Part shown: one piece after another, positions 26,955 to 29,857 of the stretch
Position numbering within the stretch: the first letter of the stretch is position 1
Layout of the letters: every line of letters starts with the position of its first letter
DNA from: Candidatus Heimdallarchaeota archaeon
Lineage (GTDB): Archaea; Asgardarchaeota; Heimdallarchaeia; Hodarchaeales; Hodarchaeaceae
Assembly: GCA_011364965.1 (NCBI GenBank)
Contig: RDOB01000004.1
Location: forward strand, 1-64,000
Direction of reading: 5' to 3'
DNA: 64,000 nt
Notes under the pieces: generated by a model
What the model was told of the DNA's origin: nothing
The model's input: only the letters and a program-made list of their open reading frames with translations
Database searches by the model: none
Made by a program: the position numbers and the translations under genes

Positions 26955-28247
26955 TTAGTGTTCTTCGATCCTTTCAGTGGATTTGTTTGACCGAAATTCA
27001 AGCATTTGTTCACTAACCAATTTTAATAATCCAACTCCTTTAGTTGACTCTCCAACCATAAATAAGAATGTATCCTCTTTCGAATTAACCCCCCATTTCA
27101 GAACTATAGAATTAGAACCATGCTGTGACAAAACTAATTGTACTAAATCAGAACGAAAGAGACGTGAGCTGGTTTGATTCATTAACATGAATATCTGACA
27201 TATAAAAGAATGTTTCCGAAAAACATGTGGAGAGGAACCCCTTAATGTATCAACTCTCTTTCCTCTTGCTCTTAGAATAGAGACATCAGTAACTATAGGA
27301 TGAAATGCATGAAATAACTGAAAACTATTAGAGATAAATTGATTCTCAAGGAATTTCTGGCTAAAATCAGAGAAAGTAGGAGAGGGACTGGGAAAATAAT
27401 CTGTATATGAAAAAGGTGTTTGCATCTTTAAATCCCATACAATCTCTCGAAAACTCCTAAAAAGACTTCCTAAGCGCCCTTTACTAGAGCTAAAAGCGAT
27501 AATAAAAATATTCTCAATGGAAATCAAATAAAATTGCTGTTTGTTAAATGTTCTTCCGTGGATTTCAATTGGTAGAACATCGAAAAATGCTCCGAACGAC
27601 TTTAATTCATCTTGATAATGTTGAAGAACGTTGGGAATGTCTTCTACTAAGGATATAATTTCAGGTGACAGAACGATGTTATGAACTGCACGAATAGTTC
27701 CATCTGAAATTAGCACGGTTTCTTGATCTGTACATATTTCACTGATTCGATTCTGAATAGTATTGTCTATTTTGGTCAATAATATTTTTTTTATATTATT
27801 AAAGAGAGTTTCAAGAGAGAAATTATCGTAATAATTAGTATTTTGATATTTTATTTCCGTTATAGCATCTTGCAGAATATTGCTAAAAGCTAAGGAATGC
27901 TGTAAGAGTTTATCTTGATGAGATCTCGGTATAAAAAGCATAAAACTTTCTATTCTGTTTTTTCCTCTCACGCTAGGATCTTCAATCGCAAATGAATGAA
28001 TTAAAACCCTCCCTTGAATTCCCGTGACGTTTATTGGGATAATAGCAGTATCAGGTTCTCCTGTGGGTTCACCAACTCCTATTGCCATAGTAAATAAGGT
28101 TGTTGTTATCCCTTGGAGGATAATCTTCGGAATGTCTAATCCATGTTCCATAGAAGATTTTAGTACTGGGCCTTGCTCGTCATGAAAACTAATGTGAGCT
28201 AAAAAGAATTGTACAGGAATTGAATCTCCATTTTGATGCAACTTCAT
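26955..28247 (-). CDS. uDENN/longin-like domain protein with additional roadblock-like domain(s)
   Basis: N-terminal LAHISFHDEQGPVL matches the F-x4-GP start of uDENN/longin folds; HSF.I.DP..RG motif; alpha/beta C-terminal domains. Confidence 0.6.
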   Translation of the reverse strand: MKLHQNGDSIPVQFFLAHISFHDEQGPVLKSSMEHGLDIPKIILQGITTTLFTMAIGVGEPTGEPDTAIIPINVTGIQGRVLIHSFAIEDPSVRGKNRIESFMLFIPRSHQDKLLQHSLAFSNILQDAITEIKYQNTNYYDNFSLETLFNNIKKILLTKIDNTIQNRISEICTDQETVLISDGTIRAVHNIVLSPEIISLVEDIPNVLQHYQDELKSFGAFFDVLPIEIHGRTFNKQQFYLISIENIFIIAFSSSKGRLGSLFRSFREIVWDLKMQTPFSYTDYFPSPSPTFSDFSQKFLENQFISNSFQLFHAFHPIVTDVSILRARGKRVDTLRGSSPHVFRKHSFICQIFMLMNQTSSRLFRSDLVQLVLSQHGSNSIVLKWGVNSKEDTFLFMVGESTKGVGLLKLVSEQMLEFRSNKSTERIEEH

Positions 28248-28331
28248 ATTATTATGCCTACAATATACTTCATCGATTTTTTTTCAAGTATTTTTTGTTT
28301 TTTAAATCAAAAATTCTGCTATGGAGGTATG

Positions 28332-28664
28332 TCAAGGTTTATCATCTTTCTTTTCCTTTTTTTTAATCAGAGATTCGACATCCTCCCATAATTTCTCTTG
28401 TTTAGTTTTCTTTTTTTGTTTCAGTTCATCTTCAATACCGAGGATATCTAGTGCCCATTGCCTCTCTTGTTCCCTCATTAATTTCTTTTTCTTTTGACGG
28501 TGTTCAGCAGCACCAATCCAAGTCTTTAAGGCGGCTTCTTGAATTCCACATTTAGTACATACATATAATTTTGCGTCTGGTCTCCAATAAAGTGTCCCCT
28601 GTTTACAGTTAGGACAAGGAATACGGGAGTCCCTGATCGTAGGATTGGACATTGTATTAATCAT
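28332..28664 (-). CDS. Zinc-ribbon protein with basic helical tail
   Basis: CPNC...CTKC followed by a Lys-rich helix; overlaps the upstream roadblock gene. Confidence 0.7.
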   Translation of the reverse strand: MINTMSNPTIRDSRIPCPNCKQGTLYWRPDAKLYVCTKCGIQEAALKTWIGAAEHRQKKKKLMREQERQWALDILGIEDELKQKKKTKQEKLWEDVESLIKKKEKKDDKP

Positions 28665-29154
28665 CCATAAGTAAGAGATGATCTAAATCTTGTTGATTTA
28701 TCTCGAGTTCAGACAGTTGTGTTTTAGATTTATCGATTTTAGGCCACTGCTGGAGAAGCTGAAGGATTGTATCAACAGCTGGTCCAATAATTAATTTTAA
28801 CAATTCAAGATCTACATAAGGATCAGTTAAAACCCCTAAAAATGCGATTTTTCCAATAGTTCTCAAAAAAATTTTATAATTTTGGCTTTCTGACGTAAAG
28901 GAGACCCATGGAGAACTCCCAATCTCCTGACCGATTGTAGTCATATTTGATTGAATTCCAGCTATTAGAGAACATAGAATAAGACTACTTTCCTTTCCTA
29001 ATGTTCCCTCTAAGTTGACTTCTTCAATTATTAACCCATCAGCATCAACACAGAAACAGGAATACATTCCGTCCAATGAATTTACGATGTCTTTGAGAAC
29101 CTGCCTTAAAGTGATGGAATGTCTTGCTGTATCATCTGAGAAGGACAACCACAT
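28657..29154 (-). CDS. Roadblock/LC7-domain protein
   Basis: L..I...DG...CVDADGLII...LGVLT....L..L pattern. Confidence 0.8.
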   Translation of the reverse strand: MWLSFSDDTARHSITLRQVLKDIVNSLDGMYSCFCVDADGLIIEEVNLEGTLGKESSLILCSLIAGIQSNMTTIGQEIGSSPWVSFTSESQNYKIFLRTIGKIAFLGVLTDPYVDLELLKLIIGPAVDTILQLLQQWPKIDKSKTQLSELEINQQDLDHLLLMDD

Positions 29155-29508: not shown

Positions 29509-29857
29509 GGAGCAGTAGGCCGGCTGAGTTAGCGGCTCAGCTACAACGTAACGCTAGATGACGGGCTTAATTCCAGAATTGAGGCATCGAAACCTAGAGA
29601 GGTTTCTTGGTTAGCTGTAATGATGTACCTCCCTTCATGGTGGCTTCTTGCTGAGATTCTTCTGGAGAGAAGAATAAGAATGGAAGGTCAAAATGGGCTA
29701 GGCTGGGATCAGCTAGCTAACAAAGCAAGACAATTTGGCTATCTGCCAGAAACAGAGCAACCCTAAGGCCGTGAGGTTACGCTTGAAGGTTCAGGGTATT
29801 GAACACTGCCAAGTTCGGCCGATCTGGTGTGAACTTGTCGACACTCTGGTCTGCTCC
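29509..29857 (+). ncRNA. ffs: Archaeal SRP (7S) RNA, intron-containing precursor
   Basis: Terminal helix GGAGCAG (29509-15)/CTGCTCC (29851-57). Alu-like start TAGGCCGG. Helix 6 ATTCTTCT-GGAG-AGAAGAAT (29656-75) with GNAR loop. Helix 8 arms GGGCTAGGCTG and CAGAGCAACCC. Length without the insertion is 306 nt. Confidence 0.9.
29709..29751 (+). other. 43-nt bulge-helix-bulge (BHB) intron in SRP RNA helix 8
   Basis: Central helix CTGG(29703-06)/CCAG(29746-49), 3-nt bulges GAT(29707-09) and AAA(29750-52), and an intron stem. Splicing gives CTG-GGAA-CAG. Confidence 0.8.

Follow-up and report, generated by a model that had tools for sequence, protein, structure and literature searches.

The window analysed here, a stretch of DNA of 64,000 nucleotides from an Asgard archaeon of the Hodarchaeales type, carries a gene for the RNA of the signal recognition particle (SRP) in which the tetraloop of helix 8 is interrupted by a block of 43 nucleotides. 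The gene, its parts and the predicted bulge-helix-bulge (BHB) structure are listed in Table 1, and all positions are those of the window.

Table 1. Parts of the SRP RNA locus and of the predicted intron structure
Feature	Position	Strand	Basis or remark
TATA box TTTATAAA	29480..29487	+	some 29 nt upstream of the 5' end of the SRP RNA
SRP (7S) RNA gene, intron included	29509..29857	+	349 nt; end-to-end alignment with 15 congeneric genes
Predicted 5' exon: Alu domain, helix 5, helix 6, 5' strand of helix 8 through tetraloop GGA	29509..29708	+	genus alignment and BHB cleavage rule
Putative BHB intron, 43 nt	29709..29751	+	alignment block found in this genome alone
Predicted 3' exon: last tetraloop A, 3' strand of helix 8 with AGCA motif, helix 5, helix 1	29752..29857	+	genus alignment
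Outer closing pair	G29702-C29753		pair list
Central 4-bp helix H, exon strand CUGG	29703..29706	+	pairs with 29746-29749; pair list and minimum-energy fold
Central 4-bp helix H, intron strand CCAG	29746..29749	+	pair list and minimum-energy fold
5' bulge GAU, predicted cut after A29708	29707..29709	+	geometry; rule checked against tRNA introns in this genome
3' bulge AAA, predicted cut after A29751	29750..29752	+	geometry; rule checked against tRNA introns in this genome
Intron hairpin h'	29710..29745	+	pair list and minimum-energy fold
h' stem 1, CAG/CUG	29710-12/29743-45		followed by a 1x1 mismatch
h' stem 2, UAGCUAA/UUGGCUA	29714-20/29735-41		7 bp, one U-G pair
h' loop	29721-34		14 nt

We searched the window with Rfam at the gathering threshold and obtained no match of any kind, and searches with RF01857, RF01856 and RF00017 returned no SRP RNA in the whole 2.97-Mb assembly, which is 87.5% complete. 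An Rfam search of 700 nt around the gene gave a full-length match to Protozoa_SRP of 38.2 bits, in which 45 nt were left unaligned within the helix-8 loop. The gene did not reach the gathering score of Archaea_SRP (RF01857), which is 96.5 bits. Congeneric genes that contain no intron were scored with the same model: seven of the eight that were scanned (L002, L004, L006, L008, L010, L016 and L017) obtained 66.6-87.1 bits, all below the gathering score, and the eighth (L015) gave no match to Archaea_SRP at an E value of 0.01 or better. As the congeners also fall under it, the cut-off is too strict for this genus, and the presence of the intron reduces the score still more. Standard annotation would thus overlook the SRP RNA of the whole genus, with or without an intron. 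The earlier note had suggested that such an arrangement could hide SRP genes from covariance models. This held in so far as Rfam finds nothing genome-wide, but the intron-less congeners are sub-threshold as well; introns of this kind and the over-strict cut-off together leave the SRP RNA unannotated in these genomes.

A covariance model of the S domain was built from the 15 intron-less congeneric genes (R1). This model gave one hit in the window, at 29625-29799, with a score of 111.3 bits (E ~1e-30) and a single 45-nt insertion in the helix-8 loop. The genus alignment shows a helix-6 loop of the GNAR type, GGAG, as well as the motifs AGG and AGCA. The gene thus shows the conserved secondary structure of archaeal SRP RNA, with the GNRA tip appearing only once the 43 nt are removed.

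The remainder of the locus is well preserved. The octamer TTTATAAA is kept at an equal distance upstream in most congeners, which indicates an intact archaeal promoter. Of the 79 consensus pairs in the genus alignment, 74 are kept (72-79 in the relatives), and the kept pairs include compensatory changes, for example in helix 1, where a G-C pair stands in place of the A-U pair of the others. Upstream of the SRP RNA gene and transcribed divergently from it, the minus strand at 26955-29154 encodes a Roadblock/LC7 protein, a zinc-ribbon protein and a third protein of 430 aa that gave a weak hit to the Folliculin family. The Roadblock/LC7 and zinc-ribbon genes adjoin the SRP RNA gene in all congeners, and this conserved synteny makes the locus a positional orthologue of the relatives' SRP RNA genes. 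A second SRP RNA was not found genome-wide in the 87.5%-complete assembly, either with the three Rfam models or with R1, which gave one match through the first-look filter of our survey. Judged by these features, the gene looks live.

Comparison of the interrupted gene with congeneric genes

A BLAST search of 60 relatives recovered a homologous SRP RNA gene in 18 of the 21 congeneric genomes. The matches stop at query position 203/204 and restart at 250/251, with 2-3 subject bases between them. We then aligned the window gene with 15 complete congeneric SRP RNA genes of 301-310 nt. A single block of 43 columns, located in the helix-8 tetraloop, sets the window gene apart from the 15 congeners, and there is no other notable difference in length. 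When the block is left out, the window gene reads AGG-CUG-GGAA-CAG-AGCA, and the congeners read AGG-CAU-GGGA-AUG-AACA or AGG-GCC-GGAA-GGC-AACA, a stem of 3 bp with a GNRA loop being present throughout.

The earlier note had proposed that removal of 29709-29751 from a linear, unpermuted gene would give a GNRA-capped helix 8 in an RNA of about 306 nt. Both parts of this proposal agree with the 15 congeners: excision of these positions yields a 306-nt RNA with CUG-GGAA-CAG, the same in length and architecture as the congeneric RNAs, and the gene is collinear with the relatives over its entire length. Excision of 29708-29750 gives an identical product, so the sequence alone leaves the position of the intron ambiguous by 1 nt, which is resolved by the BHB rule.

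Geometry of the bulge-helix-bulge motif and the cleavage rule

The block in the tetraloop folds into a near-canonical BHB motif. Two bulges of 3 nt lie on opposite strands and flank the central helix of 4 bp, giving the 3-4-3 arrangement, and every pairing and coordinate put forward in the earlier note reappeared in our pair list. Of the two flanking helices, the intron helix h' is good, with 3 bp, a mismatch and 7 bp. The outer exon helix h is weak: a single G-C pair is followed by a tandem G.A/A.G mismatch and by 3 bp. A helix of this kind is tolerable for a relaxed-specificity (alpha-beta)2 endonuclease (PMC5829648), although it is not the strict hBHBh' form. When positions 29703-29752 were folded alone, the BHB core was the minimum-energy structure, with -12.5 kcal/mol and 48% of the ensemble. 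In a context of 79 nt, the BHB fold had an energy of -15.0 kcal/mol, whereas the minimum, at -19.2 kcal/mol, was a hairpin that pairs exon positions 29696-29705 with intron positions 29710-29718 under a GGAU cap. This hairpin (29696-29718), about 4 kcal/mol more stable in the folding model, may be a competing conformation of the precursor.

The archaeal tRNA splicing endonuclease (EndA) cuts after the second nucleotide of each bulge. We coded this rule as a succession of h, a 4-bp H, a 3-nt bulge cut after its second base and h', followed by h', H, bulge and h on the other side, and applied it to the genes for tRNA-Asp(GUC), tRNA-Met and tRNA-Leu (called Phe by ARAGORN) of the same genome. The rule picked introns of 28, 23 and 30 nt, respectively, the lengths being equal to those of ARAGORN in all three genes, and the spliced products were normal tRNAs, with cleavage at the canonical 37/38 site. 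Because loose BHBs are frequent by chance if all positions are scanned, the test was narrowed to this site and to the register that restores the mature sequence. Among shuffled or random 43-nt inserts placed here, 0.07-0.15% gave a BHB of at least equal quality in that register.

ARAGORN reported just 35 tRNA genes in this genome, several of them with implausible introns of more than 1 kb. In addition, the gene that it calls tRNA-Phe(GAA) (G000 C13:83791-83907, minus strand) reads tRNA-Leu(GAG) after BHB-guided removal of the 30-nt intron. These observations suggest that many interrupted tRNA genes in the genome are mis-called or missed.

Proposed maturation and competing explanations

The genome encodes two EndA paralogues (PF01974, tRNA_int_endo), with scores of 92 and 65 bits; the two genes lie in the regions G000 C13:74167-74421 and C13:105545-105805. 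One possesses catalytic motifs of the Tyr/His/Lys type and the other lacks the His, and from their sequences they appear to be the alpha (catalytic) and beta (structural) subunits, respectively. RtcB is encoded as well (553 bits), as are SRP19 and SRP54, the latter with its M domain. The EndA of Asgard archaea is reported as an (alpha-beta)2 enzyme, and its L1 loop gives it a broad substrate range (PMC5829648). The prediction of the earlier note that this SRP RNA is matured by EndA and RtcB gains support from the presence of both EndA paralogues and RtcB, together with the comparison, the geometry and the statistics. From the anatomy of the locus, its relatives and the gene content, we infer cleavage, ligation and the dependence of SRP function on both, and we consider it likely that the 43 nt are a BHB intron spliced from the SRP RNA by EndA and RtcB.

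In the maturation that we propose, the gene's own TATA promoter would direct a precursor transcript of 349 nt, in which the tip of helix 8 would be replaced by the BHB, formed by the exon CUGG and the 3'-terminal CCAG of the intron and closed by the intron hairpin. An EndA of the heterotetramer type (alpha + beta) would cut after A29708 and A29751, and RtcB would join the exons and probably circularise the 43-nt intron. The product would be an SRP RNA of 306 nt with helix 8 ending in CUG-GGAA-CAG, the GNRA tip that SRP19-assisted binding of SRP54 requires. Because the sole detectable SRP RNA gene is interrupted and the relatives are intron-less, the SRP of this archaeon very probably works only after splicing of the tRNA type. 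In Thermoproteus, the BHB at the tip of SRP RNA helix 8 is cut by recombinant EndA, the loop is restored by ligation as EndA defines it, and the open form of helix 8 has a significantly lower affinity for SRP19 and SRP54 (PMC4731332). By analogy with these data (PMC4731332), an intact tip of helix 8 would also be needed here.

Several other explanations of the block were weighed. It is conceivable that the 43 nt are retained and that the mature SRP RNA works with a longer, bulged helix 8, since the insert folds as a continuous extension of this helix. However, retention would destroy a GNRA tetraloop that is invariant in the 15 congeners, the other full-length matches in the class span 129-137 nt and have no room for an insert, and the open tip lowered the binding of SRP19 and SRP54 in Thermoproteus (PMC4731332). 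An exact 3-4-3 BHB in the register that restores the tetraloop (P ~0.001) would also go unexplained, and we regard retention as quite unlikely. With the assembly 87.5% complete, a working SRP RNA gene might lie in the unassembled 12-13% of the genome, and the copy in the window might be disrupted, silent or decaying. This explanation is very unlikely given that by position the locus is orthologous to the relatives' single gene, that its TATA box is conserved and its 74 of 79 pairs are kept with compensatory changes and no other lesion, and that no second SRP RNA copy was found in the assembly.

The insertion comes from a single metagenome-assembled genome (MAG), and no independent contig with the junction was found in the public metagenome collection that was searched, which would fit an artefact of assembly or binning or a rare allele picked up by the assembler. 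We give this very little credence, because the 43 nt are unique in the genome and neither form a repeat nor duplicate the sequence next to them, an artefact would not produce a canonical BHB in the register that restores the mature RNA, and the contig is long, with other features beyond 500 kb on C12. Fragmented structural RNAs occur in other systems, and the two halves could stay associated through helices 5 and 8 if EndA cut the precursor and the exons stayed unjoined, the SRP RNA working as two base-paired fragments. However, RtcB is encoded, and the un-ligated helix-8 tip of Thermoproteus binds SRP19 and SRP54 with significantly less affinity (PMC4731332), both of which make unjoined exons very unlikely.

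Known systems, distribution and origin of the predicted intron

The predicted splicing of this SRP RNA resembles the maturation of the permuted SRP RNA of T. tenax and T. uzoniensis, in which the helix-8 tip is made via EndA acting on a BHB and ligation of the RtcB type, and the Thermoproteus host likewise has a heterotetrameric EndA of relaxed specificity (PMC4731332). In Thermoproteus, however, the two halves of the gene have changed places, the leader and the trailer together make up the BHB, and the product is circular (PMC4731332), whereas the gene described here is collinear, with an internal 43-nt intron in a BHB and an expected linear product, and its host is an Asgard archaeon rather than a crenarchaeon. 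Collinearity with the 15 relatives thus separates it from permuted genes of the Thermoproteus type. An intron-bearing ancestor of the permuted Thermoproteus genes has been postulated only (Plagens et al. 2015, eLife, PMC4731332), and the suggestion of the earlier note that the arrangement could resemble a precursor of permuted genes echoes this hypothesis. If spliced as predicted, the gene would supply the intermediate postulated by Plagens et al. In addition, a universally essential ribonucleoprotein of an Asgard archaeon would then require EndA and RtcB.

BHB introns are a textbook feature of archaeal tRNA genes, and many of them are present in the tRNA genes of the same genome. The SRP intron is similar to archaeal pre-tRNA introns, with their hBHBh' motif (Marck and Grosjean 2003, as cited in a preprint), in its 3-4-3 geometry, cut positions and typical size. 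It differs from them in that the host gene is not a tRNA gene and the outer helix is helix 8 of the SRP RNA and is weak, and the intron has no sequence relative in tRNA genes or elsewhere in the 83 genomes of the class. BHB introns also occur in the rRNA genes and the cbf5 pre-mRNA of Crenarchaeota, EndA acting on any RNA that presents a BHB. These are likewise non-tRNA substrates of EndA, although their host genes and phylum differ from those described here, and introns in rRNA are often of considerable length and can include ORFs for homing endonucleases, whereas the SRP intron has 43 nt and no ORF. In the full-text literature, we found no published report of an intron within an SRP RNA gene, nor is SRP RNA mentioned in a 2026 preprint that deals with the tRNA introns of Asgard archaea; maturation of SRP RNA by the tRNA-splicing machinery has been published only for the permuted circular form of Thermoproteus.

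To survey the class, we searched its 83 genomes with R1. Matches were obtained in 66 genomes, and this genome alone was interrupted, its match spanning 175 nt and the full-length matches in the other genomes 129-137 nt. A degenerate helix-8 pattern with a gap of 21-51 nt revealed no interrupted relative among species-representative genomes and JGI metagenome contigs, and the positive control with a gap of 0-30 nt recovered 13 MAGs of Hodarchaeota, Heimdallarchaeota and Promethearchaeota, all with the uninterrupted spacing of 6 nt. Public metagenome contigs lacked a 23-mer that has the 5' splice site at its end and fits both the spliced and the unspliced forms. The 43-nt sequence has no further copy in its own genome and none at up to 3 mismatches in the 83 genomes of the class. 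As the interruption is found in this genome alone, its gain is species-specific among everything searched. The most parsimonious explanation is that the intron was gained once, probably on the branch of this species after the split from the sampled congeners, and the class offers a natural comparison between one species with the intron and 65 relatives without it, so that the gain can be placed on a single branch. The earlier note had suggested looking in related genomes for covariation that keeps the BHB; with the intron in 1 of 66 matching genomes, covariation lends the BHB no support.

A local direct or inverted duplication of the helix-8 exon was considered as the origin of the intron and rejected, the local alignment of the intron with its flanks being no better than that of shuffled introns (p ~0.3). 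A group I or group II intron, an IS element and a MITE were also rejected, since the sequence has just 43 nt, no Rfam match and no copy in its own or the 82 other class genomes. A small-RNA function of the intron, of the C/D-box or another type, was likewise considered and rejected: inspection by eye revealed neither a C nor a D box, and the Rfam snoRNA hits were at chance level and in the exon.

A broader reading would combine three elements, namely splicing as a checkpoint of SRP assembly, a fresh birth of the intron, and the simple-intron stage that has been postulated for the ancestry of permuted SRP RNA genes. In this combination, the precursor would lack the GNRA tip needed for loading of SRP19 and SRP54, so that membrane and secretory protein targeting would be tied to the tRNA-splicing capacity of the cell and the intron would be more than a tolerated parasite. 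The presence of the intron in one species only would be taken as a fresh birth, here in a non-tRNA gene that is essential, and in the group of archaea that stands nearest to the eukaryotes. We consider the combination as a whole unlikely, and the idea, already raised in the earlier note, that splicing serves as a control point of protein targeting is speculation.

Some further observations were made during the survey. One genome of the class (L071) has two full-length S-domain matches on a single contig, separated by about 560 nt (G071:C152:902-1034 and 1466-1598), and its SRP RNA gene may have been duplicated in tandem. In the class family f5, R1 matched 3 of 12 genomes (G026, G081 and G082), with weak scores of 33-36 bits and an uninterrupted length; the SRP RNA of this family is either very divergent or differently arranged. 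In two congeneric assemblies, G018 (C199 and C144) and G020 (C230 and C158), contigs end inside the SRP RNA gene and overlapping pieces lie on two contigs, both pieces being without the intron (L003, L005, L021 and L023), which looks like strain heterogeneity breaking the assembly.
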